Notes: generated by a model from the letters alone, not told the origin. DNA of 64,000 nucleotides from an uncultured Eubacteriales bacterium (GCA_964525875.1 CAZGJS010000013.1:10254-74253); one strand, 5' to 3'; shown: positions 5,579 to 32,185, counted from the first letter of the stretch. Numbers and translations are program-made.

Positions 5579-5585
5579 GTCCATC

Positions 5586-6380: not shown

Positions 6381-6428
6381 GACTTGGACCGGAGCGAAAG
6401 ACAGCGCCCGGCCGTCAAGGAAAAAACA

Positions 6429-8503: not shown

Positions 8504-8516
8504 ATCACCCCTCCTA

Positions 8517-9543: not shown

Positions 9544-9712
9544 GCGAGAATACGCCGTCCCCCCGCGGGGCGTTTAGGGGGAAACGGCCCTCCTTACTAT
9601 TCCTACAACTTTCCGCCGCGGGTGTCACCTATGCGGGCCGGAAAGAGGGACAGCCCTCATTCGGGGGGAAGCAAAAATGGCCCCGAATGAGGACAGTCCC
9701 TCTTTTCCGATT

Positions 9713-9741
9713 TTGACAATCTGCGGCATCTTTGTTAAATT
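9713..9741 (+). promoter_or_regulatory. sigma70-like promoter TTGACA-17-TAAATT for PAS-GGDEF gene (near-leaderless)
   Basis: -35 TTGACA 9713-9718, 17-nt spacer, -10 TAAATT 9736-9741; ATG at 9751 only ~10 nt downstream; palindromic GAGGACAGTCCCTC immediately upstream of -35. Confidence 0.4.
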
Positions 9742-9750
9742 CATTCCCAC

Positions 9751-10728: not shown

Positions 10729-11113
10729 TAAGGCCGGCCGAGAAAGCCGAGAATAAGTAAATTTTGAAGGGACGGGGGAGGCTCCGGGCCGCTGACACGG
10801 AGTTGAGCCCCGCCGCGTTTCCGCGGTTTCCTGGAAAGCGGCGCCTGAAACCGGACTCTTTTGGGGTTTAAAAGAAGGCTGGCTGGCGAGGCGCCAAGGT
10901 TTCAAAGGAAAAGGAAGCGGGGCTAAGGAGGATCCCTCTCCAGCCAGCGGTTTTATTATAGGTGAGGCCTTTCTCGCTTGTCAATCTCAAATTGTGTTGT
11001 TTACGAAATATTTGTTCGCCGGCGGAAGCCGGGCGCAAGGGAAGCTCCTTGATTTTATGGCGGTTCAATGTATACTATTTATATAGGGTTTATACAAAAC
11101 AGGAAACACCTAA

Positions 11114-16764: not shown

Positions 16765-17718
16765 ATGTCCGAAAAGAATATCCTCGAAATCTTCCGGGGA
16801 GCCACTAAGAATCTCTGCAACAGCGTCCTCAACCAGGTGCAGGACGCTGTCGTCTGGCTGGACAAGGACAGGAAGGTCGTCTACTGGAACAAGGCGGCCG
16901 AGCAGATGTCGGGGATCGAAGGCGCTCATATCCTGGGGAGGGCCTGCTTCGAGGAGCCGGCCCTGTTCGTGGATTTCGGCGGCGTCAACGTCTGCCGGGA
17001 CAAGTGTCCCGTCGCCATGACCCTCAAGGACGGCGCGCCGCGAGCGCTCGACATCTATCTCCAGCACAAAAAAGGGTTCCGCATGCCGGCGTCCCTTAGG
17101 ATCATCCCTGTGCTCAAGGAGGACGGCGAGATCATCGGGGCCGTCGAAATGTTCACCAGCACCTCGCCGAAGGTCACCCTGCCCCTCAACCTGGCGGAGC
17201 TCGAGAAAATGGGCCTCGTCGAGACCGAGACGGGCATCCCCTCCAAGCCGTACCTGGACATGACGCTGAACACCCGCTTGGAGGAATTTCAAAAGTACGG
17301 CCTGCCGTTCGGGCTGATCTACGTCGACCTCGACAATTACGGCAAGATCCTCGAGAAGTACGGCCGTTTCAACGCCAGCAAGATCGTCCGGACCGTCGCC
17401 CGGACCCTGCACAAGAACATCCGCTTTTTCGACATCGTCGGCCGCTGGGACACCGAGGAATTCCTGGTCGTCCTCCTCAACATCGACGACAGCCGGCTGG
17501 ACATCGTCGCCAACAAGCTCCGCCTCCTCATCGCCGAATCCTACATCACGACCGAGACGGGGATGCTCAACGCCACGGTGTCCATGGGCGCCAGCATCGT
17601 CCTCCGCTACGACACGGTCGAATCCCTCATCAAGCGCGGCGAACAGCTCATGATGCACAGCAAGTGGCTGGGCAAGAACCGCGTCAGCATGAGCTTCATC
17701 CAGAAAGAGATGAACTGA
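16765..17718 (+). CDS. PAS-domain protein with degenerate GGDEF domain (GRWDTEEF; probably catalytically inactive)
   Basis: PAS N-terminus; GGDEF-fold C-terminus with active-site motif replaced by RWDTEEF; lower GC than flanks. Confidence 0.6.
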   Translation: MSEKNILEIFRGATKNLCNSVLNQVQDAVVWLDKDRKVVYWNKAAEQMSGIEGAHILGRACFEEPALFVDFGGVNVCRDKCPVAMTLKDGAPRALDIYLQHKKGFRMPASLRIIPVLKEDGEIIGAVEMFTSTSPKVTLPLNLAELEKMGLVETETGIPSKPYLDMTLNTRLEEFQKYGLPFGLIYVDLDNYGKILEKYGRFNASKIVRTVARTLHKNIRFFDIVGRWDTEEFLVVLLNIDDSRLDIVANKLRLLIAESYITTETGMLNATVSMGASIVLRYDTVESLIKRGEQLMMHSKWLGKNRVSMSFIQKEMN

Positions 17719-17775: not shown

Positions 17776-18675
17776 TTAGAAAGAGGCCGGATTTTTGGCC
17801 TTGATATCGTTCGCTTCGGCGGCGAAAAGGATCTCGTTGTTCTCACCGGTCAGGCTGAGCCGCAGGCCGGTGCCCTGGAAAACCCACTCCGCGGTCAGAC
17901 GCAGACATCCCGTCGAAAGGGCCGTCCCCCAGCCCTCATTCCGTTCGGCGTAAGCCCTATCCTCCCGCCAGACGACGTTGTTGGTGCGCGGCTCGCCGAC
18001 TTTCTCGATGAGGAAATCCCTGATCTTGTTGTAATCGGCGACATAGCGGTCCTTATCCGCGTACTTTTCGAGGAGATGGAGGCGGACGGCGACGAGCTTC
18101 TCGTCGTTGAGGACGTAGGCGAGAAGGCACTTCTTTCCCAGGAGGTCGCGGTGATAGCTCAGGAACTCGAGGCCCCCGGAAACTTCGCGGGCGAGCGGAC
18201 GGCCTTCTGCTCGAAGGATGCCCGCCTTTGTCCTCCCCCACTCCACCATGGGCATGGACTCGCCCGTCAGGTCGATCTCCTTCGGGTCGACGATCTCTTC
18301 CTGCCCGGGGGTCAAGTTGACGACCCTGAGAGTGGAGTTGAGCTTGCGGACGAACCCATCCAGGACGTAGCCGCAGAGCGTCCGGCCCGAACGCGACGAG
18401 ACGAAGAGGATGTAGAACCAGTTGGTCCGGAACTTGATCGCGCTCGACAGCCTCACGACCGCGCCCCGGGACAGGGTCTCGACGACCGGACTGCGGCCGT
18501 CTGGCTCGAGATGGACGGCGGCCTTCTCGGCCGTGACCTCGAGCCGGACGATGGTCTCGGCGCGGGCCGGCCCGGGGGGGAACGAGACGCCGAAAAGGAG
18601 CAAGAAGGCGACGGCCGCGGACCGGGCCGCGAGGCCGGCACGGCCGCTTTCCCCGTGGTTCCTGGGCATTCTCAT
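17776..18675 (-). CDS. secreted hypothetical protein with N-terminal SH3b-like domain
   Basis: ATG 18675 (MRMPRNHG...signal peptide ending PARA); SH3b-like IVRLEVTAEKAAVHLEPDGRSPVVETLSRGAVVRL...WFYI...GYVLDGFV; last gene of the second sigma/anti-sigma operon. Confidence 0.45.
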   Translation of the reverse strand: MRMPRNHGESGRAGLAARSAAVAFLLLFGVSFPPGPARAETIVRLEVTAEKAAVHLEPDGRSPVVETLSRGAVVRLSSAIKFRTNWFYILFVSSRSGRTLCGYVLDGFVRKLNSTLRVVNLTPGQEEIVDPKEIDLTGESMPMVEWGRTKAGILRAEGRPLAREVSGGLEFLSYHRDLLGKKCLLAYVLNDEKLVAVRLHLLEKYADKDRYVADYNKIRDFLIEKVGEPRTNNVVWREDRAYAERNEGWGTALSTGCLRLTAEWVFQGTGLRLSLTGENNEILFAAEANDIKAKNPASF

Positions 18676-18780
18676 GGCAATCCCATCTTTCCGCACGCAT
18701 ACTATCGGATGGGACGATGGGGCTCACAATCCCCGCCGGAGATGATTCCGAGGGGGATATTCCTCACCCCGGGAGGGGGC

Positions 18781-19779
18781 TCATTTCAGCTGGAACCTGA
18801 CCGTCACCGTGAAAACGACGGGTCGGGGCCGCCCGTTGATGACCATGGGCTCATAGACCCACTGCCGGACGGCGTCGATGGCCGCCTGGTCTAGAAGCGG
18901 GATCGACCGCAGGACCTTCACGCCGATGACCCGCCCGTAGACGTCGGTCGTCGCTTCGACGATGACGATGCCCTCCACCCGGGCCTGGCGGGCGATCTCC
19001 GGGTAGAGCGGGTCGACCGACCTGACCAGCTTGGGCGGCTTGACGTCGCCGATGGCCCTCACGGGCGCTTCCACTTCGCCGACGACACCGCCCAGGACGC
19101 CGCCCACGACACCACCCAAGACGCCACCGACCACCCCGCCCTCGACGCCGCCCTCGACGCCGCCTTCGACGCCGATGTCCGAGAGCGTTTCCTCGGCGAT
19201 CTGCTCGGGGATCTCGATGGGCGCGACGAGTTTCCCCGCATCGACAGGCGCCGCGGCCTGGACACGCTTGATCCGCGCGCTCGCCGCCGGGCTCTTCCTC
19301 TTGGCCGGTGGCGGGGGGGGAGGCGGCGGGGGCGGAGGCGGAGCAAGAAAGGCGCTGTAGACCTCGACCGTCGGCAGCTCCCCCGTTCTCATCAGGGGAA
19401 GGACGATGAGCAGCAGGAGGATGGCCGCATGGGCCACCAGGGACAGCGGGAAGACAGCCGCCCGCACGCGCGTCACGCTTTCCGGGCGATAGAAGGAGTC
19501 CTTGAACATCTCGACCTCCGCAACACGGGATGCGGGGGCTCCGGCCTGCCGCCGGTCGATCCCGGCCCGGACGCGACCGGAAAAAGAGGCCCAGTATTCC
19601 GCTTCGCGGGGAACGGAGGGAGGCGTTTTGGGAAGTTGGTCGAGGTCCCGGATGAATTCGAGGTCCCTCCGGCACGAGGAACAGGCCTTGAGATGCTTCT
19701 CGACCCGCGAGCGGTCGGCCGCCCGGAGTTCGCCGTCGGCATAGGCCCCGATGAGTTCCTGGAATTTTCGGTGTCTCAT
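18781..19779 (-). CDS. anti-sigma factor (zf-HC2) fused to proline-rich linker, (GGV)n repeats and TonB C-terminal domain
   Basis: HLKACSSCRR (HxxxCxxC), TM helix VAHAAILLLLIVLPL, P12 run, GGVEGGVEGGV...repeats, C-terminal PPKLVRSVDPLYPEIARQARVEGIVIVEATTDVYGRV...LRSIPLLDQAAIDAVRQWVYEP (TonB_C); ATGA overlap with sigma gene. Confidence 0.75.
   Translation of the reverse strand: MRHRKFQELIGAYADGELRAADRSRVEKHLKACSSCRRDLEFIRDLDQLPKTPPSVPREAEYWASFSGRVRAGIDRRQAGAPASRVAEVEMFKDSFYRPESVTRVRAAVFPLSLVAHAAILLLLIVLPLMRTGELPTVEVYSAFLAPPPPPPPPPPPPAKRKSPAASARIKRVQAAAPVDAGKLVAPIEIPEQIAEETLSDIGVEGGVEGGVEGGVVGGVLGGVVGGVLGGVVGEVEAPVRAIGDVKPPKLVRSVDPLYPEIARQARVEGIVIVEATTDVYGRVIGVKVLRSIPLLDQAAIDAVRQWVYEPMVINGRPRPVVFTVTVRFQLK
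19110..19200. repeat. coding tandem repeat (12-nt unit gacgccgccctc and variants) encoding (GGV[EVL])n linker
   Basis: Direct nucleotide repeats within anti-sigma::TonB_C gene, GGVEGGVEGGVEGGVVGGVLGGVVGGVLGGVV. Confidence 0.6.
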
Positions 19780-19780
19780 C

Positions 19781-20371
19781 TCAAGCTCCCCTCGCCAGGG
19801 AATCCGTCAGGAGGCCTTTCAGCTTCTGTCGGGCCCGATTGAGCCGGGACATGACGGTGCCGATCGGCAGGTCGAGGGTCCGGGAGATCTCCTCGTAGCT
19901 CATGCTCTCTTGGAACCTCAGGACGAAGACGCTTCTCTGGTCGGCCGCGAGCGACGCCACCGCCCGTTCGAATCGGACCTCGAATTCGGCGCGCTCCAGC
20001 CGCTCCTCGGGACCGTCGGCCGGCGCGGAGAAAGGCGTCCTCCGCGCTCCCAGGGTCCCTTCGAGGAGCGGCCGCTCCCGCTTCCGGGCCTTGAGGTAAT
20101 TGAGCCCTGAGTTGAGGGCGATCCGCCGGAGCCAGGGGTAAATGGGCCATTGCACGTCGAACCGGTCCAGGGCGTAATAGGCCTTGATGAAGGTCTCCTG
20201 GGCCAGGTCGTCGGCCGACTGGTGGGCGCCGGTCAGGCGCCGGCAGAGGGCGTAGACCCTCTGCTGGTACTTCCGGACCAGGCTCTCGAAGGCGTCCATG
20301 TCTCCCTGCTGGGCTTTCCGGACGAGGACGGCATCCTCCGGATGCTCGGGCGGCCTCGTCGGAGCTCCCAT
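19781..20371 (-). CDS. RNA polymerase ECF-type sigma-70 factor
   Basis: Region 2 (DDLAQETFIKAYYALDRFD) and region 4 (MSYEEISRTLDLPIGTVMSRLNRAR). Confidence 0.8.
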   Translation of the reverse strand: MGAPTRPPEHPEDAVLVRKAQQGDMDAFESLVRKYQQRVYALCRRLTGAHQSADDLAQETFIKAYYALDRFDVQWPIYPWLRRIALNSGLNYLKARKRERPLLEGTLGARRTPFSAPADGPEERLERAEFEVRFERAVASLAADQRSVFVLRFQESMSYEEISRTLDLPIGTVMSRLNRARQKLKGLLTDSLARGA

Positions 20372-20481
20372 AGGTCATACACCTCGCGGCGGAAGTTATT
20401 CCTCATTTCCATGATACGCCTTTTTGAGCCGCGAATGAACTCGACCGTGGAGGGACTTGACAGCAGGGCCTGATTCTTGTA

Positions 20482-20517
20482 TTTCTACTGTTCCTATAGT
20501 ACCTATAGTACCTATAG
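20482..20517. repeat. tandem 9-bp repeat (CCTATAGTA)x3 + degenerate 4th copy in sigma/mtrA-like intergenic region
   Basis: cctatagta cctatagta cctatagta tctatatgc at 20482-20517; low-GC spacer 65-100 nt upstream of the decaheme gene ATG. Confidence 0.8.
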
Positions 20518-20583
20518 TATCTATATGCTCAGTTCTCTTCATTCATGCGACTGTAGATTGGGGAATTTGGAAAGGAGGATTAC

Positions 20584-21501
20584 ATGAAAGGTCATCGCAA
20601 GACCACGCCCCCTGCTCTCGCTGTCCTCATGACTTTCCTGGCTCTGATCGGCCTGGTCCTTCTGGTTATGCCCGAGAAGGTCGCGGCCCGTCAGGACGGG
20701 CAATATGCGGGCATCGAGCAGTGCGCGGCGTGCCACGAGGAAACTGTCGCCCAGTTCCGCGAATCGATCCACGGGAAAAAGGGGTTCGAGATGCGCTCGA
20801 GCCACTCCTGTGAAACCTGCCACGGGGCCGGCAAGGCCCACGTGGACGCGGGCGGAGGCAAGGGCTCCATGACGACGATCAAGGGGCTCTCCAAGGAAAA
20901 ACAAACGGAGATGTGCCTGCAGTGCCATGACCGCGGGAACAAGACCGACTGGCAAGGGAGTCTCCACGAGACCCGTGGGCTTTCCTGCCAGGATTGTCAC
21001 TCGGTCCACAGCCCCGGCACCGACAAGGCTCAGCTCAAGGCGTCCGAAACGGATCTGTGCTTCACCTGCCATAAGCAGAAGCAGGCGCAGTTCTTCCGGG
21101 CATCCCACCACCCGGTCCGGGAAGGTAAGATGGCATGCTCCGACTGCCACAATCCCCACGCCGTCCAGGAAGGCAAGCTCGTCGACCAAGCGGCCGTGGC
21201 AGAGACCTGTTATCAGTGCCACGCCGAAAAGCGCGGGCCCTTCCTCTGGGAGCACATCCCCGTTCGGGAGGATTGCATGACCTGCCACGAAGCCCACGGG
21301 TCCAACCACATGAAGATGCTCAAGGTGAAGGAGCCCTTCCTTTGCCAGCGCTGCCATTCCGACACTCGGCACCCCGGCACGCTCTACGACCAGACCCAGC
21401 GGAACAACGACAGCAATCGCCTGTACGGCCGCTCCTGCACCAACTGCCATTCGACGGTCCACGGTTCGAACCATCCTTCGGGCAGGACCTACCTGAGGTG
21501 A
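20584..21501 (+). CDS. periplasmic decaheme c-type cytochrome, MtrA/DmsE/PioA family-like
   Basis: 305 aa, signal peptide, exactly ten CxxCH (CAACH CETCH CLQCH CQDCH CFTCH CSDCH CYQCH CMTCH CQRCH CTNCH); RBS AAAGGAGGA. Confidence 0.8.
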   Translation: MKGHRKTTPPALAVLMTFLALIGLVLLVMPEKVAARQDGQYAGIEQCAACHEETVAQFRESIHGKKGFEMRSSHSCETCHGAGKAHVDAGGGKGSMTTIKGLSKEKQTEMCLQCHDRGNKTDWQGSLHETRGLSCQDCHSVHSPGTDKAQLKASETDLCFTCHKQKQAQFFRASHHPVREGKMACSDCHNPHAVQEGKLVDQAAVAETCYQCHAEKRGPFLWEHIPVREDCMTCHEAHGSNHMKMLKVKEPFLCQRCHSDTRHPGTLYDQTQRNNDSNRLYGRSCTNCHSTVHGSNHPSGRTYLR

Positions 21502-21514
21502 CGAGGAGTTCCCA

Positions 21515-23728
21515 ATGAAAAAAACAATCCTATCCATTGCACTTGTGGGTCTCGTCCTCGACCTGTTCTCGGGTTCCGCCTGGGCCCAGGACAAGAAGGG
21601 CGAGGAACTCGTCTTCAAGGGGGCCGCTACGGCCGGCGTCCAGGCCGTCAAGGAGATCGAAAGGTCCTCCAAGTTCACCGAATACCGCGACGTCCCTCGG
21701 GGCTTTTTTCTGCAGTCACTGACTCTGGACCTGACGAAGGGAAGCCGTTATTTCTATCTCTCCGTGATGAATGTTCAGCAGGCCGACGAGCGGATCACGG
21801 CCAGCGTCGGTGACTACGGCAAATTCGCGCTCGATCTGGGCTACGATAGCATCCCCCACCGGTTCAGCTTCGACGGCGCCACATCGTACGTCGAAAAAAC
21901 CCCGGGCGTCTTCACCCTGAACGACGTCATCCGGTCCGCCGCAGAGGCCCTCGTCCCCACGGGGACAAGCACCAATATCGCCGCCGCACGGGCCCTCGTC
22001 TCGAGCTTCCTGACAAGCGCCGCCCCTATCGACCTGGGACTTCTGCGGAAAAAGGCGACCCTCGATTTCGCCTACACGCCGTCCGTTCCCTTCAGCTTCA
22101 ACGTCGCGGGAAGCTACGAAACACGGAGTGGGAACCGGCCCTACGGCACCCCCCTCGGATTCAGCAACGCGATCGAACTCCCCGAACCGATCCATTACAA
22201 GACGACCAACATGGACACGAGCCTCGAGTACCACAAGGGTTGGGGAACAGTCCGGGCGGGTTTCGCTGCGTCCCTGTTCGACAACGACGTCCAGACCCTG
22301 ACCTGGGACAATCCCTATCGGATCACCGACTCGACCTATGCCACGGCCTACAGCGCGGGCAACGGGACCGCTCACGGCCAGATGGCCCTCTGGCCCTCCA
22401 ACGACGCCGTAAGGTTTTATCTCAGCGGGTCCTTCAAACCGCTGAAGACCACGCGGATTTCGGCGGCCGCGTCCTACGGCACCTTCAGCCAGAACCAGAA
22501 ACTCCTGCCCTTCACGGTCAACACCGCCATCCCGGGCTCCGACCCGACGGCCGTCAACGCCCTCTCCGCGCCCCGTGAATCGGCCAAGGCCAAGGCGAAC
22601 ATCACCTCGCTCGACCTCACCTTGAACTCCCGGCTCATGAAGTCCGTTTATCTCGCGGCCGGATTCCGGTACTACGACTTCGCCAACAAGATCGAAGAGC
22701 TCGATATTCCCAACGGGTATGCCCGGCTGGATCAGGTCTGGGAAAACATCCCCATCGCCGTCGAACCCTATTCCTTCGCCCGTTCGCGGCTGTTCGGCGA
22801 CCTGACCTTCAACGTCCTCAAGAACACGTCCCTCAAGGTCGGTTACTCCCTCTATAGCGTCCGCCGGCACGAGGGCACCCACGAGACGGAAAAGAACAAG
22901 TCGGACGAGGGCACCTTCAAGGTCTCCGTCGATAGCAATCCGTTGGACTGGTTGATGCTCCGCGTCACCTACCTCAACTCCAAGCGGGACTGGTCCCTCG
23001 ACGACACCTGGTACGCCTACATCCCGAGCTTCAACTTCAAGCGTTATTTCGAGGCCAGCCGGGACCGGCAGTCCATCAACGCGCTCGTCGGCCTGACCCC
23101 GATCGACAACCTGGATATCCAGCTGACCTACTCGATCGGGCGTGACGATTACCCGAAGTCCGAATACGGGCTGACGCGGGACGACTTCGACATGTACGGC
23201 ATCGACCTCAGCTACGCCTTCGCCAAGAACCAGACGCTCTACGGTTTTTACACCCGCGAGATCTATGACGCCGACCAGGCCTCGCGTCAGAGCGGCGCGA
23301 CCTTTTCGGTGAACCCGTTGGACGATTGGACGGCGAACCTGAAGGACACCGTCGACACCTTCGGGGCCGGACAGACGATCGAGCTCCTCGCGGACAAGCT
23401 CAACTTCGACCTCTCAGCCTCGTATTCCAAGGCTGCCGGCTCTTCGTTCCTCTTCTCCCCGGCCGGCGGGACCCCGAACACCGCCCTCAACTTCACCGAC
23501 CCCCTCGACTCGACCACCTGGTGGACGATCCAGTCCTCCTTCAAGTGGAAGATGATGAAGAACCTCCTCGTCGTCCTTGGCTACTGGTACGAGCAGTATA
23601 ACCTCAAGGACATCGTCCGGAACGAAATCGCCGTGGATTACGCGGCCGCCGGCGCCATCTTTCTCGGCGCCCGGGAGCCCGGCTACAAGTATCACGTCGG
23701 CTCCGTGAAGTTCATCTACAGCTGGTAA
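21515..23728 (+). CDS. outer-membrane beta-barrel, decaheme-associated MtrB/PioB family-like
   Basis: 737 aa, signal peptide MKKTILSIALVGLVLDLFSGSAWA, C-terminal ...KFIYSW aromatic terminus, alternating amphipathic beta-strand pattern; 14 nt downstream of decaheme gene. Confidence 0.7.
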   Translation: MKKTILSIALVGLVLDLFSGSAWAQDKKGEELVFKGAATAGVQAVKEIERSSKFTEYRDVPRGFFLQSLTLDLTKGSRYFYLSVMNVQQADERITASVGDYGKFALDLGYDSIPHRFSFDGATSYVEKTPGVFTLNDVIRSAAEALVPTGTSTNIAAARALVSSFLTSAAPIDLGLLRKKATLDFAYTPSVPFSFNVAGSYETRSGNRPYGTPLGFSNAIELPEPIHYKTTNMDTSLEYHKGWGTVRAGFAASLFDNDVQTLTWDNPYRITDSTYATAYSAGNGTAHGQMALWPSNDAVRFYLSGSFKPLKTTRISAAASYGTFSQNQKLLPFTVNTAIPGSDPTAVNALSAPRESAKAKANITSLDLTLNSRLMKSVYLAAGFRYYDFANKIEELDIPNGYARLDQVWENIPIAVEPYSFARSRLFGDLTFNVLKNTSLKVGYSLYSVRRHEGTHETEKNKSDEGTFKVSVDSNPLDWLMLRVTYLNSKRDWSLDDTWYAYIPSFNFKRYFEASRDRQSINALVGLTPIDNLDIQLTYSIGRDDYPKSEYGLTRDDFDMYGIDLSYAFAKNQTLYGFYTREIYDADQASRQSGATFSVNPLDDWTANLKDTVDTFGAGQTIELLADKLNFDLSASYSKAAGSSFLFSPAGGTPNTALNFTDPLDSTTWWTIQSSFKWKMMKNLLVVLGYWYEQYNLKDIVRNEIAVDYAAAGAIFLGAREPGYKYHVGSVKFIYSW

Positions 23729-23732: not shown

Positions 23733-23781
23733 CCCGGGCCGGGAGGGGGACGCTCTCCCCTTCCCGGCCCGGATTCTCTTT
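23733..23781. terminator. bidirectional rho-independent terminator between convergent operons
   Basis: Hairpin cccgggccgggaggggga-cgctc-tccccttcccggcccgg followed by ATTCTCTTT on + strand and preceded by AAAA (TTTT on - strand). Confidence 0.6.
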
Positions 23782-23867: not shown

Positions 23868-24683
23868 TCAGGGCGCCGGGACGGCTTGGCGAGCAGGCTC
23901 TGTCCCCCCGGCTTCGAGGGCCTTTTGCCTCTCGGCCAGGATCTTCCGGTATTCCAGGGCGTGAAGAGTCTTCAGCTCGTGCCCGCTGATCTTGCCGTTG
24001 ATCCATATCTTGCTCATCGGGAAGACTTCGGGGTTGAGGTGGACGTTGTACATGTGCCAGATGATGATCGCCAGGAAGGCCAGCATGGCCTCGTAGCCGT
24101 GGGCGATGACGAAAATATCGTGGACCCAGAGAGGGAAGATGCTGAGCGACAGATCCACGTTCCACATGAAGAAGCCGGAGATGATCATGATGAACGACCC
24201 CCAGGCCACGGAGAGATATTCGAGCTTCTCGACAAAATTATAGCGACCGTACTCCGGCGGATTCTCGAACCTCCAGAAGGGATGGCGGTCGAAAAACTTC
24301 CGAAGGATCCCCTTCCGGTAGAGCCAGCGCGATAAGCCGACGTTGTACCCGAAAAGGGCCACGGCGTCGAGGCCGTCCTTCGGATGCGGGATCATCTCCT
24401 TGAAGTTGTCCCGGCCCCTCCGGGTCAGGATGGTGTAGCCGGAGTGCCAGACCATATCGACGATCAGGACGATCGCCGCGACGCGGTGCAAGACCCCGCG
24501 ATAGGTGAACGCCTTCTCGATGCTGAAGATGGACTTGAAGATGCGCAGCTCGTAGAACATCAGGGGCAGCCCCGTCACGACGAGGAGCGAGAAAGAAACG
24601 ATGAGGAGGACGTGCTGGACCCTCTCGGCCGGGTTCATCCGGAGAAAAACTTCGTCGTCGCGGATGAGCGTCTTTCCGGTCAT
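23868..24683 (-). CDS. di-heme membrane cytochrome b (FdnI/HydC/cytochrome b561-like quinone-interacting subunit)
   Basis: ATG 24683 (MTGKTL...) in ATGA overlap with upstream gene; 5 TM helices with conserved His (HVLLIV, HRVAAIV, HGYEAM, WHMYNVH). Confidence 0.6.
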   Translation of the reverse strand: MTGKTLIRDDEVFLRMNPAERVQHVLLIVSFSLLVVTGLPLMFYELRIFKSIFSIEKAFTYRGVLHRVAAIVLIVDMVWHSGYTILTRRGRDNFKEMIPHPKDGLDAVALFGYNVGLSRWLYRKGILRKFFDRHPFWRFENPPEYGRYNFVEKLEYLSVAWGSFIMIISGFFMWNVDLSLSIFPLWVHDIFVIAHGYEAMLAFLAIIIWHMYNVHLNPEVFPMSKIWINGKISGHELKTLHALEYRKILAERQKALEAGGTEPARQAVPAP

Positions 24684-25918
24684 CTTTTCCATCGGATCCT
24701 CATGCGGCGATAAAGGTCGGCGGCGATGAAGGCCAGGAACACGAAGATCAATCCGCCGATGACGACCATGTAGACGATCTTGACGGTATAGGCCCAGCGG
24801 TTCTCGGTTTTCTCCGAGATGACGTGGATGCGGCCCTTGGAGAAGTTGTCGCCGGCGCCCGGATGGCAGGTCCCGCATGTTGCGGCCATGTTGGCCGGGT
24901 TGATGGACGAGAGGGGGTCGGAGGACGGCCGGATGCCGTGGTGCCCGTGGCAGCTCGAGCAGTTGGCGACCTTGACTTCGCCGAACTTCGAAGCCGTGCC
25001 GTGGTAGGACGCGGAGAAGGTCTTAAGCCGGGACGTCAGAAGGCCATACTGTCTGGCCAGGGTCTCGTCGTCGTGGCAGCGGGTGCAGACGGCGGCCACC
25101 TTCGTGGCGTAAACGCCCGAGCCGAGGTCCTCGGGGGAGCGGATGTCGTGCTCGCTGTGGCAGTCCGTGCAGACGGGGACGCCCTGGACGCCCTTGACAT
25201 AGTCTTTGCCGTGAACGCCCTCGAGATAATCCCGCTCAATGCCGGTATGGCACGTCCCGCAAGTTCGAATGATGTTCTGGCGCGAGACTTTGGACCGAGG
25301 GTCGTCGACCGTACGGACCGAGTGGCCGCCGTGGCAGCTGAGGCAGGTCGCGGAAAGACTCAGGCCCGCCTTGGACAGGGCCCGGAAATGAGCGCTGTCC
25401 TTATAGCCGCCGACGAATCCCGCCACCCGCTTGGCCTTGACGCGCTCGAGATGGCAGGTCAGGCAGGTGTCGGGGATGTTCATCGGGGAGGTGTGCGACT
25501 GGGCGTCTTTGGCGGGACGGATATCGTGAGTGCCGTGGCAATCCTTGCATTGGACGGTGATGGGCGAGTCCCCGTCATGCTGACGGCCATGGATGCTGTC
25601 GCGGATCGCGGTGGCTGCCTCCTCGTGGCAGGACGCGCAATCGACCGGCTTGAGCTTCGCGGCGTGAGGGAAATCCGTGAACTTTTTGAGGTCGGCGTGA
25701 CAGTCGACGCAGGCGATCCCGGCCGAGCCGTGGATCGAAGCGGTGAAACTAGCGCCGTCCACGAAAAGGGAGCGGCCCTGCTCCGTTTTCAACCCGGAGT
25801 CCCCATGGCAGGTCAGACAGTCGTCGTCGGATTGTCCGGCGAGGGCCGGCGCGGCGGTCCAGAGAACGACCAGCGCCGCCGGGAGGGCAAGCCGCAGGAA
25901 CGCGCCGCGGAGCTTCAT
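24680..25918 (-). CDS. undecaheme c-type cytochrome with C-terminal TM anchor
   Basis: ATG 25918 (MKLRGAFL signal peptide); 11 CxxCH; C-terminal TM VKIVYMVVIGGLIFVFLAFIAADL. Confidence 0.75.
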   Translation of the reverse strand: MKLRGAFLRLALPAALVVLWTAAPALAGQSDDDCLTCHGDSGLKTEQGRSLFVDGASFTASIHGSAGIACVDCHADLKKFTDFPHAAKLKPVDCASCHEEAATAIRDSIHGRQHDGDSPITVQCKDCHGTHDIRPAKDAQSHTSPMNIPDTCLTCHLERVKAKRVAGFVGGYKDSAHFRALSKAGLSLSATCLSCHGGHSVRTVDDPRSKVSRQNIIRTCGTCHTGIERDYLEGVHGKDYVKGVQGVPVCTDCHSEHDIRSPEDLGSGVYATKVAAVCTRCHDDETLARQYGLLTSRLKTFSASYHGTASKFGEVKVANCSSCHGHHGIRPSSDPLSSINPANMAATCGTCHPGAGDNFSKGRIHVISEKTENRWAYTVKIVYMVVIGGLIFVFLAFIAADLYRRMRIRWKR

Positions 25919-25956
25919 CGGGTCTTGAATCCTCGCCTCCGGCGGCGGAAGCGGAC

Positions 25957-26475
25957 TTACTTCCCCGGGACGGGGTGCTTGATCTTTTCCCAGAAGGAGG
26001 CGAAGTCGAAGCTGATGCCGTGGGGATTCTCGTGACACTTCAGGCACTGGGCTTTGATGGCGTCGGGGCTGCCGTAGAGGATCAGTCCGTTCTTCACGGA
26101 CTCAGCCTTGTCCTTCATCACGCTGAGCTTCTTGTACTCGCTGCCGGGGCCGTGGCAGACCTCGCAAGATACGCCATCGGACTTGAGGTCGGGGGCTTTG
26201 GCGGCGAGCGGAGAGTGGCACTTCAGACAGCGCGGGTCGTCCGCCGGCTTGTCCACGCCCATGGCCTGACAAGCCTCGGCCGCCTTGGACGAGGTCAGGG
26301 CTTCCAAGGACTTGGAATGCTTGGAGCTTTCCCAGATCACATACTGCCGTCCCTGGTTCTCCGACTTATGGCAAATCTGGCATTTCTGGGCGCCGACGTA
26401 GGCGAATTCCTGGCCGATGGCCGGGACGGCCAGAATGAGCAGACCCAAGGCTGACAGCGCAAGCTTGTTTTTCAT
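25957..26475 (-). CDS. tetraheme c-type cytochrome (cytochrome c554-like), secreted
   Basis: Signal peptide; CQICH, CLKCH, CEVCH, CLKCH. Confidence 0.75.
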   Translation of the reverse strand: MKNKLALSALGLLILAVPAIGQEFAYVGAQKCQICHKSENQGRQYVIWESSKHSKSLEALTSSKAAEACQAMGVDKPADDPRCLKCHSPLAAKAPDLKSDGVSCEVCHGPGSEYKKLSVMKDKAESVKNGLILYGSPDAIKAQCLKCHENPHGISFDFASFWEKIKHPVPGK

Positions 26476-26574
26476 GGTCACTTCCTATAACTCATATAAG
26501 GTCTATCGGATAAATATTGTATTAAACCGGCGGTGAATTGTCAACGCGAATGGACAGAATTGCTTGCCGGGCTC

Positions 26575-27843
26575 TTACGGCCGGGAACCGCCGCGGCCTT
26601 CTCCCTCTCGCCGGGCACGCGCCATGCGCCTGATTTTCAGGGCAAGGGCGGCCGCGAAGACGGCCAGGAGAACGGTGGTCACGGCCAAGCCCCGCCGCCG
26701 GAAGCGGGCCTCGTCCAGAGCCTTCTCGCCGGCGGTGCGGACCCCGGCGAGCGCCGCTTCTCCTTCGGCGACGGTCTTGGCGATCTCGGCCGTATCGAGA
26801 CCGTGGGTCAAGTTCTTGGCGGTGACGAGGACGGTCGTCACGTCCAAGAGCTTGAATTCCGCATCGCTGACTTCGACGCCCTTCTGCTTGGCCCGCGCCA
26901 AGAGGCCCTCGGCGGCCTGGAAACCGGACTCGAAGCGGTCGAGCGTCCGGCGGAGCTCGGCCGCCGCCTCGAACCCCCGCGACCCTTTTTCGTGGCACTG
27001 GACGCACACGGCACGATCGTCGGTCCCGATCATCGCCGTGGAGGGGGTAAGGATCTTGTGGTTTCCGTGGCAGGCTTCGCACTCGCTCGCCCCGAGCTCG
27101 TCGAAGGCCTTTTTATGGGGGCTCTTGGTGAAGAGCTCGCCCGTCGAGGGATGGCACTGGCGGCAGACCGAGGCCACCGACGTGACGGATGGCGGATAGG
27201 CGCCGTGGTTTCCGTGGCAGTCATTGCAGACGGGAGCGGAAAGGTCCTTCTTGTCATAGAGGGCCTTGGCGTGGACGCTGGCTTTGTAGTCGTCCAACTG
27301 GTCCGTCGGGATCCTATAGCCCTCCATGAAGGCCTTGTCGGCGTGGCAGCGGCCGCAAGTCTGGGGGATATTCCACGGAAAAGTCGGGGATTTGGGGAAC
27401 CTGGCCGATTGGATGCCATGGACACCGTGGCAGTCGGTGCAGACGGCCGCTTTCGTATCCCCGGATTTCAGGAGCTGCCCGTGGCGGCTGGTTCCATATT
27501 GACTGAGCTGGTCCGTGCGCAGGGCGGGATTGTAGGCCCGCATGGCCGCGGCGTCGGAGTGGCACCCTCCACAGAACTGGGGGATTTGGCTCCGTTTGGG
27601 CGATCCCTTGAACGATTTGTCCTTGGCCAGGTCGACGTCGTCCTTGTCCGGATTCCCTCCGTGACAGTCCTTGCAGCTCAGCCCGTACTCGGCGTGGACA
27701 TCGGCAGCGAAAGAGGCGGCCGGGACCTTGAGCTCGTCGTCGAGCTGGTTATGACACTCGATACAGCTGTTTTTCTGCCCGAAGGCTAGGAGCGGCGCAA
27801 AAAGCGCCGCCACGGTAAGAAAGCGGATCGCACGGATTTTCAT
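26575..27843 (-). CDS. nonaheme c-type cytochrome with C-terminal TM anchor
   Basis: Signal peptide MKIRAIRFLTVAALFAPLLAFG; 9 CxxCH; C-terminal helix LAVTTVLLAVFAAALAL. Confidence 0.75.
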   Translation of the reverse strand: MKIRAIRFLTVAALFAPLLAFGQKNSCIECHNQLDDELKVPAASFAADVHAEYGLSCKDCHGGNPDKDDVDLAKDKSFKGSPKRSQIPQFCGGCHSDAAAMRAYNPALRTDQLSQYGTSRHGQLLKSGDTKAAVCTDCHGVHGIQSARFPKSPTFPWNIPQTCGRCHADKAFMEGYRIPTDQLDDYKASVHAKALYDKKDLSAPVCNDCHGNHGAYPPSVTSVASVCRQCHPSTGELFTKSPHKKAFDELGASECEACHGNHKILTPSTAMIGTDDRAVCVQCHEKGSRGFEAAAELRRTLDRFESGFQAAEGLLARAKQKGVEVSDAEFKLLDVTTVLVTAKNLTHGLDTAEIAKTVAEGEAALAGVRTAGEKALDEARFRRRGLAVTTVLLAVFAAALALKIRRMARARREGEGRGGSRP

Positions 27844-27855: not shown

Positions 27856-28932
27856 TCAGAGTTTCGGCAACGCATAGGTCAGGACCGTCATGACCGCGAT
27901 GTAGGCGGCCAGGACCAGACCGATCCAGGTGAAAGGGGGGCTTCGCTTCTCGCGGCCGGCGCGCCGGTCCAGGAAGGGTATCAGCATCCAGAGCAGGCCC
28001 CCGGCCATGAAGCCCAATATGGCCAGCCTCTCCCCTTCGATGGACAGGATGTGCGCGGGGACGATCTTGAGGGTCGTGAACATGAAGGTAAAATACCACT
28101 CCGGTTTGATGCCGAGCGGGGTCGCGGCCAGCGGGTCGGCTTTCGTTCCGATCTCCCATGGTAAAAATACGCACAGGACGCCGATGAGGACGAGCATCAG
28201 GGTCCAGCCGAGTGCATCCTTGTACAGGAAGTCGGGAAAGAAGGGGATTTCCTTCGTCCCGCGCTCGCCGACGGGCTTGCTCATGCCCAGGGTTTGGACG
28301 AGGAGGATGTGGATGCCGATGAGGATCAGCGCGGCCAGGGGCAGCAGGGCGACGTGGAACCAGAAGAAACGGGAAAGGGTCGCCTGGGAGACCTCGGGCC
28401 CTCCCAAGATGAACGTTTTGAGCCAATTGCCTATGAACGGGAGGCTCCCGGCGATGTCTGTCCCGACGCGGGTCGCGAAATAGGACAGCTCGTTCCAGGG
28501 GAGGAGGTAGCCGCTGAACCCGAAGGCCATGAAGAGGACTAACAGGAGGAAGCCGGTCACCCACGTCAGTTCCCGGGGTTTACGGTAGGCCTTGAGGAAG
28601 AATGTCGAGAACATGTGGACGAAGAGGAGGCCGATGAGGATGTTGGCCGTCCAGCTGTGGACGGAGCGGATGAGCCAGCCGAACTTGACCCCGCTCATGA
28701 TGAACTGGATGCTTTCGTGGGCGGCGTCGATGTGGGGAGTATAGTAAAGAAGGAGCATGGCGCCCGTCGCGACCTGGATCCCGGTCAGGAACAGGCAGAT
28801 CCCGCCGAAGAAATACCAGAATGAATGGCGGTGTTCGGGAACGGTCTTTTTCTTTCCAAAGGCGATGAGCCCTGAAAGCAGGAAGCGTTCGTCCAGGAAT
28901 TTCCAGACGCTCTGCCCGATTTTCTTGGCCAT
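27856..28932 (-). CDS. cytochrome b of a Rieske/cyt b (bc-type) complex
   Basis: ATG 28932 (MAKKIGQSVWKFL); 8+ TM helices, heme-ligand His pairs, Qo-site PEWY motif (IKPEWYF). Confidence 0.8.
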   Translation of the reverse strand: MAKKIGQSVWKFLDERFLLSGLIAFGKKKTVPEHRHSFWYFFGGICLFLTGIQVATGAMLLLYYTPHIDAAHESIQFIMSGVKFGWLIRSVHSWTANILIGLLFVHMFSTFFLKAYRKPRELTWVTGFLLLVLFMAFGFSGYLLPWNELSYFATRVGTDIAGSLPFIGNWLKTFILGGPEVSQATLSRFFWFHVALLPLAALILIGIHILLVQTLGMSKPVGERGTKEIPFFPDFLYKDALGWTLMLVLIGVLCVFLPWEIGTKADPLAATPLGIKPEWYFTFMFTTLKIVPAHILSIEGERLAILGFMAGGLLWMLIPFLDRRAGREKRSPPFTWIGLVLAAYIAVMTVLTYALPKL

Positions 28933-28933: not shown

Positions 28934-29359
28934 TCAGCTTTTCCTGGAGACGATGATGTCGGGGCCGGAAACCTCGACGGCGTAGGTTTCGAGCGGTCTC
29001 GGCGGCGGCCCGGACAGGACGTTCCCGCTGAGGTCGAAACGGCCGTTGTGACAGGGGCAGAAGAGGGTCCCTGTTTCGCCGTCATAGCGGACCGTGCATG
29101 TCAAGTGGGTACAGATAGCCGAGAGGGCGACCAGGGTCCCCTCCGCCGTGTTGATCAAGACGGCCGGCGCCGAACCGAACTTGAAGATCTTGGCCGCGTT
29201 GGGGGGAAGCTCGCCGGCCTTGGCCGCCGCGACGCTGTTCTGGACGGCGCCGGTCCTCTTGGACGGGAGGACGTAGCGAACGACCGGATAGACGAAGGCG
29301 GCGATCGTGGCCAGAAGGCTTCCGCCGAAGAAGATGTCGAGGAAACTGCGGCGTTTCAC
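28934..29359 (-). CDS. Rieske [2Fe-2S] iron-sulfur protein
   Basis: N-terminal TM anchor; CTHLTC ... CPCHNG cluster-binding boxes; ATGA overlap with upstream gene. Confidence 0.85.
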   Translation of the reverse strand: MKRRSFLDIFFGGSLLATIAAFVYPVVRYVLPSKRTGAVQNSVAAAKAGELPPNAAKIFKFGSAPAVLINTAEGTLVALSAICTHLTCTVRYDGETGTLFCPCHNGRFDLSGNVLSGPPPRPLETYAVEVSGPDIIVSRKS

Positions 29360-31404
29360 TTTTTCTCTTCTTTTCCGCTGCCCAACGATTTTATTGTTCC
29401 CAATATTTTTGTCAAGTAGTCGTCGATAAAAAGATAGTTGTGGATGCCCGAACTCCCGTCGAGGTCGATCGTCCGCAACGCCTCCTCGATCTTCTGGACC
29501 ACGGCTTTTTCGGGGTCCGTCAAAGGGCTTTTATAGAGGGCGTGGAGGGCGGACCGGGCTTCGTCGGCGCGGCTCCGGACGCCGTCCCGCCACTCGGTGA
29601 ACGTCGCCCGGTATTTCTCGTCGTGGCAGGCGACGCAGGCGCCGCCGTCGGGCCGGACGACCTTCTTGGCTTTATCCACGTGGCAATCCGGGCAGGACGC
29701 CCCGGCCTCGGCCATCATGTCCTTCGGGACCTTGACCTCCCCGAGCGCCCCTCCCTCGTAAAACGTTTTCTGGAGGGCATGGCACTCGCCGCAGCTTTTC
29801 TTGGCCTCCTGATGATGGCAGGTTGCGCAGGACGCCTTGGTGGCCGTCAGCTCGCCATGGCGGCGGACGTTCGAATGGCACGTCGCACACTCCAGCTTCT
29901 GCCCGACAGCATGTTTGCGGTGGGAAAACTGGAGGCCGAACACGGGGCGGCTGATCTCCTCGATCCCGGCGTGGCAGGTCAGGCAGGCGTTCGGCGTTTC
30001 GCGGTTCAAGAGGGTCGTCGCCTCCGGCCGGTAGGTGGAGCCCGCGGCGGCCAGGGCTTCGCGGATTTTTTCAAGCGACGCGGTCAAGAGCTCCTGGGAA
30101 TAGGCCATGTTATGGACGCTCTTGCCCTTTTCCACGATGTCGATATTGAACCGGGCTTCATCGAGGAGGGCCGTGGGCTCTTTCTTTTTCGGCCCGGCCG
30201 CCGATCGGACGGCCACGGCCGCCCGCGCCGAAATCGCCTTGATCTCCGCCAGCCTCTTCTCGGTCGCGCTCTCCCAATTCTTTAAGATCCGGTCGAAGCC
30301 GCGGCCATGGCACGACTCGCAGGCCGCGCCGCTCGCCGTGAGCGTATCGCCCTTGTCCAGCCGGCCGCTCGCCTCATGGAACATGTGGCAGCCCTGGCAG
30401 CTAAGCCCTTTCTCCAGCATGACGTTGGGCATGGCGTGCGGGATCCCTTTTCCGCCCTGACCCGTGTAAAGGATTTTCTGGGCGCTGTGGGTCCCTTGGT
30501 GGCAGGCCTGGCAGTCGGCGATCGTCTCGATGTCCTTGACGATCTTGTGTTCGATTTCGCGGTGGCACTGCTCGCACTCGATCTTGTTGGCCGTGATGTG
30601 GGTCCGGTGCATAAGTTCCGTATCGTTGTACTTCTCCAGCCGGTCCCTCTCGAAATGGCACTTGTCGCAGTTTTCCTTCGGCACCTCGCCGTCGCCGGAC
30701 ACGATACGGCTGTGGCACTTGTCGCAGCTGTAGCCGTTGTCGAAGACGGGCATGTGGTCGAAACGCTCCTTGACGGCGAGAAGCTCGTCCTTGCGGTGGC
30801 AGACGGCGCATTCCCCTGTCCGGACCTCGGGCGCCTTGTCCTTGAAATGGCAGAGGAAACAGGACGCCGGCGTGACGGTGATGTGTTCGCCTTGCACGAT
30901 CTGGGAGTGGCAGCTCGTGCAGCGCAGGGTCTTGCCCCGTTTGAGGTCGTCGAAGTGGGCCTTGTGGTCGAAGGCGACCTTGCCGAACTCGACCTTGCCC
31001 TCGAGAAGCCTCCGGTCGTGACAGCCGGGACGGAGGCAGCTCTCGTCCTGGATTTCCGCCCAGGGCTTGGATTTCACGTAGAGGCGCGTCCAGTAGCGGC
31101 CGACCATGACCAGGCCCTCGATTTTCGTCCGGAAGAACGATTTCATGCCCGGCGGATAATGGCAGACCTTGCACTGGACGTCTTTGTGGGAGGAGGTCTT
31201 CCAGCTCTCGAAAAAGGGCTTCATGTAATGGCAGGACGAACAGAAACGTGACGTCGAGGTCACCTCGATGGAAACGACGAACAGCAGGATGACGGCCGCC
31301 GGCAGGCCGAAGAGGAGGAGACGGCGTTTCCTGCGTTTCGGCTTCTGCGGCAGGGCTTCCGAGCCCAGCACCGCGGCCGGGTCCCGAGGGCCGTCCTCAG
31401 GCAT
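29356..31404 (-). CDS. membrane-anchored multiheme (17 CxxCH) cytochrome with NapC/NirT/NrfH-type N-terminal quinol-dehydrogenase module
   Basis: ATG 31404; TM LLLFGLPAAVILLFVV then FCSSCHYMKPFFESWKTSSH (NapC/NirT signature); 17 CxxCH plus one possible CX4CH (CLRPGCH). Confidence 0.7.
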   Translation of the reverse strand: MPEDGPRDPAAVLGSEALPQKPKRRKRRLLLFGLPAAVILLFVVSIEVTSTSRFCSSCHYMKPFFESWKTSSHKDVQCKVCHYPPGMKSFFRTKIEGLVMVGRYWTRLYVKSKPWAEIQDESCLRPGCHDRRLLEGKVEFGKVAFDHKAHFDDLKRGKTLRCTSCHSQIVQGEHITVTPASCFLCHFKDKAPEVRTGECAVCHRKDELLAVKERFDHMPVFDNGYSCDKCHSRIVSGDGEVPKENCDKCHFERDRLEKYNDTELMHRTHITANKIECEQCHREIEHKIVKDIETIADCQACHQGTHSAQKILYTGQGGKGIPHAMPNVMLEKGLSCQGCHMFHEASGRLDKGDTLTASGAACESCHGRGFDRILKNWESATEKRLAEIKAISARAAVAVRSAAGPKKKEPTALLDEARFNIDIVEKGKSVHNMAYSQELLTASLEKIREALAAAGSTYRPEATTLLNRETPNACLTCHAGIEEISRPVFGLQFSHRKHAVGQKLECATCHSNVRRHGELTATKASCATCHHQEAKKSCGECHALQKTFYEGGALGEVKVPKDMMAEAGASCPDCHVDKAKKVVRPDGGACVACHDEKYRATFTEWRDGVRSRADEARSALHALYKSPLTDPEKAVVQKIEEALRTIDLDGSSGIHNYLFIDDYLTKILGTIKSLGSGKEEKK

Positions 31405-32185
31405 AAGAGTGCAGCCCCGAGAGGAGGTAATTGACTCCGAAATAGGTAAACAGCGCGGCCAGGAAACCGAGGATGGCAATGAGCGCCGAGCGTTTCCCTT
31501 TCCACCCCATGACGATCCGCGTATGGAGATAGAGGGCGAAGACGAACCAGGTGATAAGGCTCCAGACCTCCTTGGGGTCCCAGCTCCAATACCTCCCCCA
31601 GGCCTTGTAAGCCCAGACCATGCCGAAGACGAGCCCCCCGAGGGTGAAGAGAGGGAAGCCCACGGCGACGGCCCGGTAGCTCAGGGAGTCCATTTTCTGT
31701 TTTTTCTCCTCCGTGTCGGCCCTGAGATAGAGCAAGCTGGCGATGAAAGCCACGGCGAAAAACGCCTCGCCGAGGAGGGTGACGGACACGTGGAGCCAAA
31801 GCCAATAGCTCTGGAGGGCAGGGACGAGGGGCGCCGTGTCCTTGGGCATGAGCGGGGACGACGCCAGGGCGACAAGGCCGACGGCGATCAGCATGACATA
31901 GGGCGCAACCCGGGGAATGCGGAATTTCCTGTCGAAAACGATCAAGGCCAGGACCGTTGCCCAGGCCAGGAAAGATAGGGATTCATACATATTGGTGAAG
32001 GGCGCGTGCCGGCTGACGACGGTCCTGAGGATGAGGGCCCCGGTGTGGACCGCGAAGCCGGCTGCGGCCAGCACAAGGCCCGCCCCGGCCCATTTCTCCT
32101 TCCCAACAAAAAGAGAAGCGAGGTAGACGAGCGCCGACAGGATGTAAAGAATGAAAGTGATGGTGAAGAGCGTGGCTTCGGTCAT
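31397..32185 (-). CDS. ccsA: cytochrome c biogenesis protein CcsA (System II heme handling, ResC)
   Basis: WWD-domain motif WGRYWSWDPKE, 7-8 TM helices; ATGA overlap with resB. Confidence 0.85.
   Translation of the reverse strand: MTEATLFTITFILYILSALVYLASLFVGKEKWAGAGLVLAAAGFAVHTGALILRTVVSRHAPFTNMYESLSFLAWATVLALIVFDRKFRIPRVAPYVMLIAVGLVALASSPLMPKDTAPLVPALQSYWLWLHVSVTLLGEAFFAVAFIASLLYLRADTEEKKQKMDSLSYRAVAVGFPLFTLGGLVFGMVWAYKAWGRYWSWDPKEVWSLITWFVFALYLHTRIVMGWKGKRSALIAILGFLAALFTYFGVNYLLSGLHSYA

Follow-up and report, generated by a model that had tools for sequence, protein, structure and literature searches.

We analysed a 64,000-nucleotide stretch of DNA from an uncultured bacterium (GCA_964525875.1, CAZGJS010000013.1:10254-74253; the whole stretch is called the window below) and found that two adjacent genes at 20584-23728 very probably encode a trans-outer-membrane electron conduit of the MtrAB type, consisting of a secreted decaheme c-type cytochrome (protein A) and an outer-membrane beta-barrel (protein B). 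The assignment draws on what was observed of the proteins (their families, the fold and the heme ligands) and of their genes (the structure of the operon and its conserved linkage). Taken as a single statement, that this is an mtrAB-type operon of Candidatus Aminicenantes (Acidobacteriota), placed at the end of a clustered electron-transfer chain that most likely runs outward, is the reading we favour, with modest confidence. Anoxic sediments and aquifers harbour abundant, uncultured Aminicenantes, whose part in the redox cycling of iron and humic substances has been inferred solely from marker-gene counts; the locus provides a complete and compact candidate route that links the quinone pool with the cell surface.

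A decaheme cytochrome and a 26-strand barrel of the MtrA and MtrB families

The mtrA-like gene lies on the forward strand at 20584-21501. According to the open reading frame (ORF) listing and its translation, it encodes 305 amino acids (aa) with 25 histidines and exactly ten CxxCH motifs; all 20 cysteines of the protein lie in these motifs. The N-terminus is hydrophobic from residue 7 to residue 36, ending at VAA before RQ; because no cysteine precedes residue 47, this signal-like N-terminus has no lipobox cysteine and the product is predicted to be a secreted non-lipoprotein. A chance origin of ten heme motifs within 305 aa is ruled out, and two or more CxxCH motifs occur in just five ORFs of the window, namely A and four genes of the adjacent operon. 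The mtrB-like gene follows on the same strand at 21515-23728 and encodes 737 aa devoid of cysteine, with an N-terminal signal peptide ending at SAWA before QD and the C-terminus KFIYSW. From the stop codon of A to the ATG of B there are 13 nucleotides (nt), which contain a GAGG ribosome-binding site. An initial annotation of this DNA had described both ORFs, the count of ten motifs, the signal peptides, the 737-aa length and the KFIYSW end, and we recovered each of them at the same coordinates; its 'fourteen nucleotides downstream' is the same spacing, counted up to the A of the ATG.

Both proteins scored above curated family cut-offs. In NCBIfam, A matched the DmsE-family decaheme model TIGR03508 at 267.6 bits (cut-off 192.2) over profile positions 1-258 of 258, and it aligned with MtrA of the Shewanella baltica Mtr complex (6r2q_A, PDB 6R2Q; E 5e-61) at 43% identity across 263 residues. 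All ten CxxCH histidines and 11 further histidines of A fall in columns shared with MtrA which, by the alignment, would suffice for ten bis-histidine hemes. B matched the MtrB/PioB models TIGR03509 (279.4 bits, cut-off 240.05; NCBIfam) and PF11854 (full-length 324.3 bits, cut-off 23, profile positions 6-635 of 635; Pfam), and its sole match by sequence among solved structures was MtrB (6r2q_B, E 1e-18). The initial annotation had proposed a hidden Markov model check of this kind, and its expectation stood in that A passes the MtrA/DmsE model TIGR03508 and B passes TIGR03509; the decaheme model that it named, TIGR03507, was the wrong one, being the model of MtrC/OmcA (PMC7005843). A also scored 258.8 bits on the GSU2203-family decaheme model, nearly equal to its TIGR03508 score and under that model's cut-off of 325, and B matched the GSU2204 family of CXXCH-containing (seleno)proteins weakly, at 30 bits. 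These two scores hint that the Geobacter pair GSU2203/GSU2204 is a diverged MtrAB relative.

B was modelled with AlphaFold2 from 42 aligned homologues (25-87% identity), and the model had a mean predicted local distance difference test score (pLDDT) of 86.5, a predicted template modelling score (pTM) of 0.81 and 26 long beta-strands as assigned by DSSP; MtrB, MtoB and PioB are reported to have 26 strands each (PMC10654088). When the model was searched against the PDB with Foldseek, MtrB 6r2q_B was the sole close match (E 2e-38, root-mean-square deviation 4.0 Å), with template modelling (TM) scores of 0.78 by query and 0.88 by target, and the next matches were 22-strand TonB-dependent transporters with TM scores of ~0.35-0.4. 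The MtrB-type barrel anticipated by the initial annotation is therefore what the structure prediction returned.

The two genes stay together well beyond close relatives. In all ten related loci examined, a gene for a protein with ten hemes immediately adjoins the barrel gene (gap of -4 to +49 nt), and this adjacency persists down to 30% barrel identity. A periplasmic decaheme that happens to be encoded beside an ordinary diffusion porin, with no conduit formed, would be a highly improbable explanation of the pair: both proteins lie above curated family cut-offs, the only close structural match of the 26-strand barrel is MtrB, and the two genes adjoin each other in ten of ten loci. Directly after B, beginning 6 nt downstream, is an intrinsic-terminator-like hairpin with a 17-bp stem (14 GC pairs) and a T-rich tail (23734-23772, forward strand), which sits between two convergent operons. 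No strong hairpin of this kind was found between or inside A and B, the scan's other four matches, some of which lie within the genes, being stems of 5-7 pairs. The 13-nt gap, the ribosome-binding site, the hairpin pattern and the kept adjacency of A and B agree with co-transcription.

The cytochrome operon, its linkage to the pair and the surrounding genes

Convergent with B is a nine-gene operon on the reverse strand that runs from resB to a gene for a cytochrome b561. At its head (31397-33537) are resB/ccsB (32182-33537) and ccsA (31397-32185), genes of System II cytochrome c maturation (PF05140, 264.8 bits; PF01578, 170.7 bits). They are followed by a 17-heme cytochrome with an N-terminal NapC/NirT-type anchor (29356-31479; ~682-707 aa, its start codon being uncertain), recognized by 17 CxxCH motifs, PF03264 (37.6 bits), one N-terminal transmembrane helix and multiheme domains. 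Next come a 141-aa Rieske [2Fe-2S] subunit with an N-terminal anchor (28934-29359; PF00355, 59.5 bits, and PF25471), whose cluster boxes read CTHLTC and CPCHNGRF in the translation, and a cytochrome b of the fused b6 plus subunit IV type (27856-28932; PF00033, 173 bits, PF13631 and PF00032). The latter has ~358 aa if translated from an internal methionine, and its homologues in related loci have 358-362 aa. Its best NCBIfam matches, cytochrome b6 and Geobacter ExtP (199.9 bits, cut-off 290), are both under cut-off, as are the PetC-like matches of the Rieske subunit. Because the b6, PetC and ExtP equivalogs all fall short and the Pfam domains score above their cut-offs, the Rieske/cytochrome b pair is predicted to be a distinct subtype.

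The remaining four genes encode three further c-type cytochromes and one b-type cytochrome. A 422-aa 9-heme protein (26575-27843) has a signal peptide and a C-terminal membrane anchor, as judged from its CxxCH count, Pfam and hydropathy. A c554-like tetraheme cytochrome of 174 aa (25957-26481; four CxxCH motifs, PF13435, 49 bits) has a signal peptide only and is predicted to be soluble and periplasmic, a candidate shuttle; its gene is kept in loci L001, L003, L006, L011 and L013 of our set of relatives. The 11-heme cytochrome (24680-25918; 11 CxxCH motifs, Pfam multiheme domains) has a signal peptide and a C-terminal transmembrane helix with a basic tail, and is 412 aa long, as it is in L008. 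The last gene (23868-24692) encodes a membrane di-heme b-type cytochrome resembling cytochrome b561 and FdnI-HydC (PF01292, 44.7 bits, weak FdnI-gamma matches, four hydrophobic helices), of 274 aa by the gene call in L008. By domain content, the 11-heme and cytochrome b561 pair plausibly resembles a split quinol oxidoreductase of the CbcL/MtrH/MtoC type. Hydropathy, anchors and basic tails would place the products of the operon at the inner membrane or in the periplasm. In relatives, an extra multiheme gene (~402-421 aa, ~34% identical to the 11-heme protein) stands between the c554 and 11-heme genes (L001 5176-6414, L003 3915-5171, L006 14234-15442, L013 3993-5258). The window has a single copy in this region (24680-26481), and the paralogue has been either lost or gained.

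Linkage of this operon to the decaheme-barrel pair is conserved. All eight loci with a barrel identity of 49% or more (49-100%) have the operon next to the pair; they are the window, L001, L002, L003, L006, L008, L011 and L013. L008 is a public contig with identical genes, which are found in read-set assemblies of runs SRR13723396 and SRR13723397. The orientation is convergent in the window, L002, L006 and L008, co-directional with the operon upstream in L001, and divergent in L003, L011 and L013. Because the adjacency persists through rearrangement, it argues for functional coupling of the pair and the cytochrome operon. Compared with L001 (9070-12211), from the 84%-identical metagenome-assembled genome (MAG) RBG_16_66_30, the decaheme-barrel segment of the window is inverted relative to the cytochrome operon. 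All genes of L001 are co-directional, and a histidine kinase and a sigma-54 response regulator that follow its barrel gene are missing in the window. Searches for inverted repeats or mobile-element ends around the pair returned only short imperfect matches besides the terminator hairpin, which leaves the inversion unexplained by repeats.

More distant loci keep the pair in other company. In L012, from Candidatus Aminicenantes RBG_16_63_16 (47% identical barrel), the Rieske/cytochrome b operon is absent from the position beside the barrel gene, and genes for a molybdopterin oxidoreductase, a 4Fe-4S protein, NrfD, a cytochrome c and a multiheme protein are found there (4623-10931), an arrangement like that of alternative complex III (ACIII) or Psr. 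The decaheme gene of that locus (1429-2301) was overlooked by the public gene call. A Mto-like arrangement, with a CymA-like tetraheme and also a monoheme cytochrome, is seen in the 30%-identical L007, and in L014 the pair lies among arsenic and thioredoxin genes. In L004, genes for a GGDEF sensor and then a PilZ protein lie directly upstream of the pair (5174-8874). The 985-aa upstream protein of L004 was considered as a hidden surface cytochrome and rejected, as it has no heme motifs and consists of a beta-propeller sensor with GGDEF.

The lineage assignment rests on the closest barrel homologues. Down to ~45% identity, those with names come from Candidatus Aminicenantes, Aminicenantales, Aminicenantia or Acidobacteriota, with one from Candidatus Fischerbacteria, and many of the nearest are auto-named 'MtrB/PioB family decaheme-associated outer membrane protein'. 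Extended synteny was seen in one species genome, that of Candidatus Aminicenantes bacterium RBG_16_66_30. MtrAB homologues are known from Acidobacteria genomes (PMC5900883, PMC7399161, PMC8805035), and Aminicenantia have been flagged in FeGenie-type surveys (PMC12740246, PMC7914226). The initial annotation had held that such a pair was not functionally characterised in Acidobacteriota-type genomes; this is true of function in the searchable literature and needs the qualification that genomic reports exist (PMC5900883, PMC7399161, PMC8805035, PMC12740246).

Upstream of the pair, we read by eye a candidate sigma-70-type promoter (TTGACA-17 nt-TATTTC, 20458-20486, forward strand), of which the TTGACA...TTATTTCT block is kept in L006, a 69%-identical locus. 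A consensus sigma-70 scan called no promoter, and it missed the candidate because the -10 hexamer is weak. Between this candidate and the ribosome-binding site of the decaheme gene sits a tandem 9-bp repeat, CCTATAGTA, in 3.7 copies with the palindromic core CTATAG (20493-20525, forward strand; TRF score 59, 95% matches). Its three exact copies are confined to this site within the window, and related CTATAG-containing sequence is found upstream of the decaheme gene in L003 and L006. The CCTATAGTA array looks like a repressor operator.

A divergent operon on the reverse strand (17776-20371; Pfam and NCBIfam) encodes an extracytoplasmic function (ECF) sigma factor (19781-20371), an anti-sigma factor (18781-19779) and a conserved secreted protein without a family match (17776-18696). 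The anti-sigma factor combines an N-terminal zf-HC2 domain, one transmembrane helix, a poly-proline and glycine-rich linker and a C-terminal TonB domain. The sigma/anti-sigma operon adjoins the pair in the window and in L006 and is nearby in L001; its products are possible regulators of the pair. An XRE/M78 protein is another regulator of the neighbourhood. Genes of cyclic-di-GMP signalling are found repeatedly in the vicinity of the pair: besides the GGDEF and PilZ genes of L004, two PAS-GGDEF proteins (9751-10728 and 16765-17718) are encoded in the window at most 11 kb from it.

Other features of the window lie at a greater distance. A 1269-aa protein (37332-41141, reverse strand) with DUF7948, seven SBBP beta-propeller repeats and a fibronectin type III domain is a probable surface protein without heme motifs. 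An IstB-like IS21 helper ATPase (44188-45009, reverse strand; 238 bits), a mobile-element remnant, lies where the GC content shifts (0.55-0.65). Adjoining divergent genes encode AAA_14/DUF4143 ATPases (49887-51053, reverse strand; 51353-52699, forward strand), near a 956-aa Ser/Thr kinase with PD40 repeats (46964-49834) and a TPR/ankyrin protein (53012-54862).

Proposed electron route and direction of flow

How A and B assemble, how the modules are wired to one another and which way electrons flow are inferred from these genes. In the proposed route, the 305-aa protein would be exported to the periplasm and loaded with ten bis-histidine c-type hemes, with System II maturation genes nearby, and would thread the lumen of the 737-aa 26-strand barrel, where its hemes would form an insulated wire connecting the periplasm with the cell surface. 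No match to MtrC/OmcA (TIGR03507) was found in NCBIfam among the five multiheme ORFs of the window (A at E <= 1, its four neighbours at E <= 0.001). In the absence of an MtrC-type surface cytochrome, contact at the surface would be made by the last heme itself, as in MtoAB and PioAB. The neighbouring operon would supply three quinone-interacting inner-membrane modules: the NapC/NirT-anchored 17-heme cytochrome; the Rieske/cytochrome b complex with the membrane-anchored 9-heme protein as its acceptor; and the 11-heme cytochrome with cytochrome b561, similar to a split CbcL/MtrH/MtoC. From up to three of these modules, the soluble tetraheme c554-like shuttle would pass electrons to the conduit. 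If flow is outward, electrons from quinol would leave the cell in anoxic sediment, and their acceptors would be Fe(III) in soluble or chelated form, Mn(IV), humic quinones, shuttles or partner cells.

The initial annotation had cautioned that sequence does not reveal direction, which is well founded, and the phylogeny of MtrA and MtrB does not reveal it either (PMC8805035); outward operation on its own we put at about an even chance. It is favoured by the presence of three quinone modules at the locus together with the lack, in Pfam and NCBIfam scans of the neighbours, of any terminal oxidase, nitrate reductase, high-potential iron-sulfur protein (HiPIP), cupredoxin or monoheme class I cytochrome; these scans found no carbon-fixation gene either. 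The surroundings of the cluster in relatives favour it as well, since modules for electron input are found there: L003 and L013 have an 11-subunit nuo operon after the pair, and in L013 cytochrome b561 is followed by a [NiFe] hydrogenase. In bc1 and b6f complexes, a serine and a tyrosine raise the potential of the Rieske cluster. Box II of the present protein, CPCHNGRF, has neither, which suggests a low-potential, menaquinol-type complex and would speak for outward flow. Aminicenantia MAGs from ferruginous anoxic sediment have, in addition, been scored as iron reducers (PMC12740246), which favours the same direction.

The same conduit might instead work inward, in Fe(II) oxidation or electron uptake of the MtoAB/PioAB kind, which we regard as possible though doubtful. 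Extracellular Fe(II), minerals or a partner would then donate electrons to the decaheme, from which these would move to the tetraheme and, by way of the Rieske/cytochrome b or CbcL-like modules, to the quinone pool; some would be driven uphill to NAD(P)+ through complex I, and others would go to a terminal acceptor whose genes lie elsewhere. Several of the features above can be turned to this account and weigh against outward flow. The absence of an MtrC-family surface cytochrome from the window is the criterion that parts Mto/Pio-type from Mtr-type loci, and FeGenie uses it to label such pairs 'probable iron oxidation, possible reduction' (PMC7005843). An architecturally equivalent cluster in the bacterium RBG-1 was judged more likely to serve Fe(II) oxidation than Fe(III) reduction (PMC3903129). 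Reverse electron flow from Fe(II) to NAD+ likewise requires a bc-type complex and complex I, which the Rieske/cytochrome b genes and the nuo operon of L003 and L013 provide next to the conduit, and some Aminicenantia MAGs have Fe-oxidation markers such as cyc2 (PMC7914226, PMC12740246). Modules of the CbcL/MtrH/MtoC type sit beside both mtrAB and mtoAB and occur in reducers and oxidisers alike (PMC6295460), MtoA and PioA form no function-specific clades, and MtrCAB runs both ways (PMC8805035). A terminal oxidase or nitrate reductase may be encoded elsewhere in the genome, outside the window. Finally, no functional study of any Aminicenantes conduit was found in the searchable literature.

What speaks against the inward alternative is, in turn, the missing equipment. 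Its natural partners, a terminal oxidase or nitrate reductase, a PioC-like HiPIP, an MtoD-like monoheme cytochrome and carbon-fixation genes, are lacking among the scanned neighbours. Three quinone-interacting modules that converge on one exit are the pattern of metal reducers (PMC6295460), the [NiFe] hydrogenase of L013 would be a source of electrons and not a sink, the Rieske motif suggests a protein of low potential, and the lineage is reported mostly from anoxic sediments (PMC12740246, PMC7914226).

Another alternative, which we consider unlikely, is that the pair takes part in an extracellular reaction other than that of metals, much as DmsEF works for the surface dimethyl sulfoxide (DMSO)/iodate reductase DmsAB, or that it acts as a condition-dependent two-way valve to which no fixed direction belongs. 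TIGR03508, the best NCBIfam model of A, is named for DmsE, but it is a subfamily model that covers MtrA too. The molybdopterin oxidoreductase with FeS and NrfD subunits beside the pair in L012 would fit such a reaction; its NrfD membrane subunit, however, makes it look like an inner-membrane quinol module of the ACIII/Psr type and not an extracellular enzyme. MtrCAB is reversible by experiment (PMC8805035), which lends some weight to the valve. In the window and in the seven other closest loci, the genes beside the pair include no molybdoenzyme or other catalytic surface partner, which speaks against this alternative, and no molybdopterin domain of the dmsAB-like kind was found among the neighbouring and larger window proteins scanned against Pfam.

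Within the outward reading, or its inverse, we tentatively raise a more specific idea: that in this Aminicenantes lineage a Rieske/cytochrome b complex is hard-wired to the Mtr-type conduit and passes its electrons to a membrane-anchored multiheme cytochrome and not to cytochrome c1 or f, giving a proton-motive Q-cycle route. This linkage offers a concrete hypothesis on energy conservation and leaves knowledge of Mtr-type conduits as such unchanged. If it is true, extracellular respiration (or uptake) would not be limited to the CymA-, CbcL- or ImcH-type quinol dehydrogenases of model organisms, and the adjacency kept through at least three rearrangements, together with the molybdopterin/FeS/NrfD swap in L012, would point to a modular 'quinol:MtrA oxidoreductase' slot.

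Comparison with known conduits

The pair shares with MtrAB of Shewanella MtrCAB (6R2Q, S. baltica) the aligned ten CxxCH motifs and distal histidines, the 26-strand barrel and the order of A followed by B. It differs in that the window has no mtrC/omcA gene, the barrel is 19% identical and the inner-membrane partner is not CymA. The MtrB of gammaproteobacterial metal reducers has an N-terminal CXXC, which the cysteine-free B cannot carry. DmsEF of Shewanella oneidensis belongs to the same decaheme and barrel families; unlike in DmsEFAB, genes for a dmsAB-like extracellular molybdoenzyme do not adjoin the pair among the window proteins scanned.

In combining a decaheme and a barrel without a surface cytochrome, the pair resembles MtoAB of Sideroxydans lithotrophicus ES-1 and PioAB of Rhodopseudomonas palustris TIE-1, and the MtoB and PioB barrels are predicted to have 26 strands, as is B (PMC10654088). 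The c-type and b-type cytochromes that adjoin the pair are plausibly a split CbcL/MtoC-like module, which would recall MtoAB loci (PMC6295460). Unlike in the MtoAB-MtoD-CymA system, there is no monoheme MtoD, and the NapC/NirT-type anchor is carried here by a 17-heme protein. Unlike in PioABC, no HiPIP is found among the neighbours, and A lacks the long N-terminal extension of PioA, its first heme motif standing at residue 47. In place of the Mto and Pio partners, the genes beside the pair encode a Rieske/cytochrome b complex and large multihemes.

The proposed convergence of several quinol-oxidising modules on one periplasmic pool recalls Geobacter sulfurreducens (CbcL, ImcH, Cbc and the ext cluster). 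The 11-heme protein and cytochrome b561 mirror the domain content of its CbcL, and its ext cluster likewise sets an outer-membrane conduit beside a b-type cytochrome complex (ExtP). The differences are that all scores are under the curated cut-offs, that the conduit here is of the Mtr type and not the Pcc/Ext type, and that a Rieske protein is present.

A counterpart of the same cluster type, compared by description, is that of the aquifer bacterium RBG-1 reported by Castelle et al. in 2013, in which MtrA/MtrB occur with periplasmic and inner-membrane multihemes and a PetAB Rieske/cytochrome b, and with no extracellular cytochrome (PMC3903129). RBG-1 belongs to a different phylum and has two monoheme cytochromes, as well as aa3-type oxidase genes elsewhere in its genome. 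The closest relative of the present locus, L001, also comes from the 'RBG' series of aquifer-sediment MAGs. Because a cluster of like type was described in 2013, the architecture was already known, and the pair is an additional MtrA/MtrB member, ordinary in kind, in another lineage.

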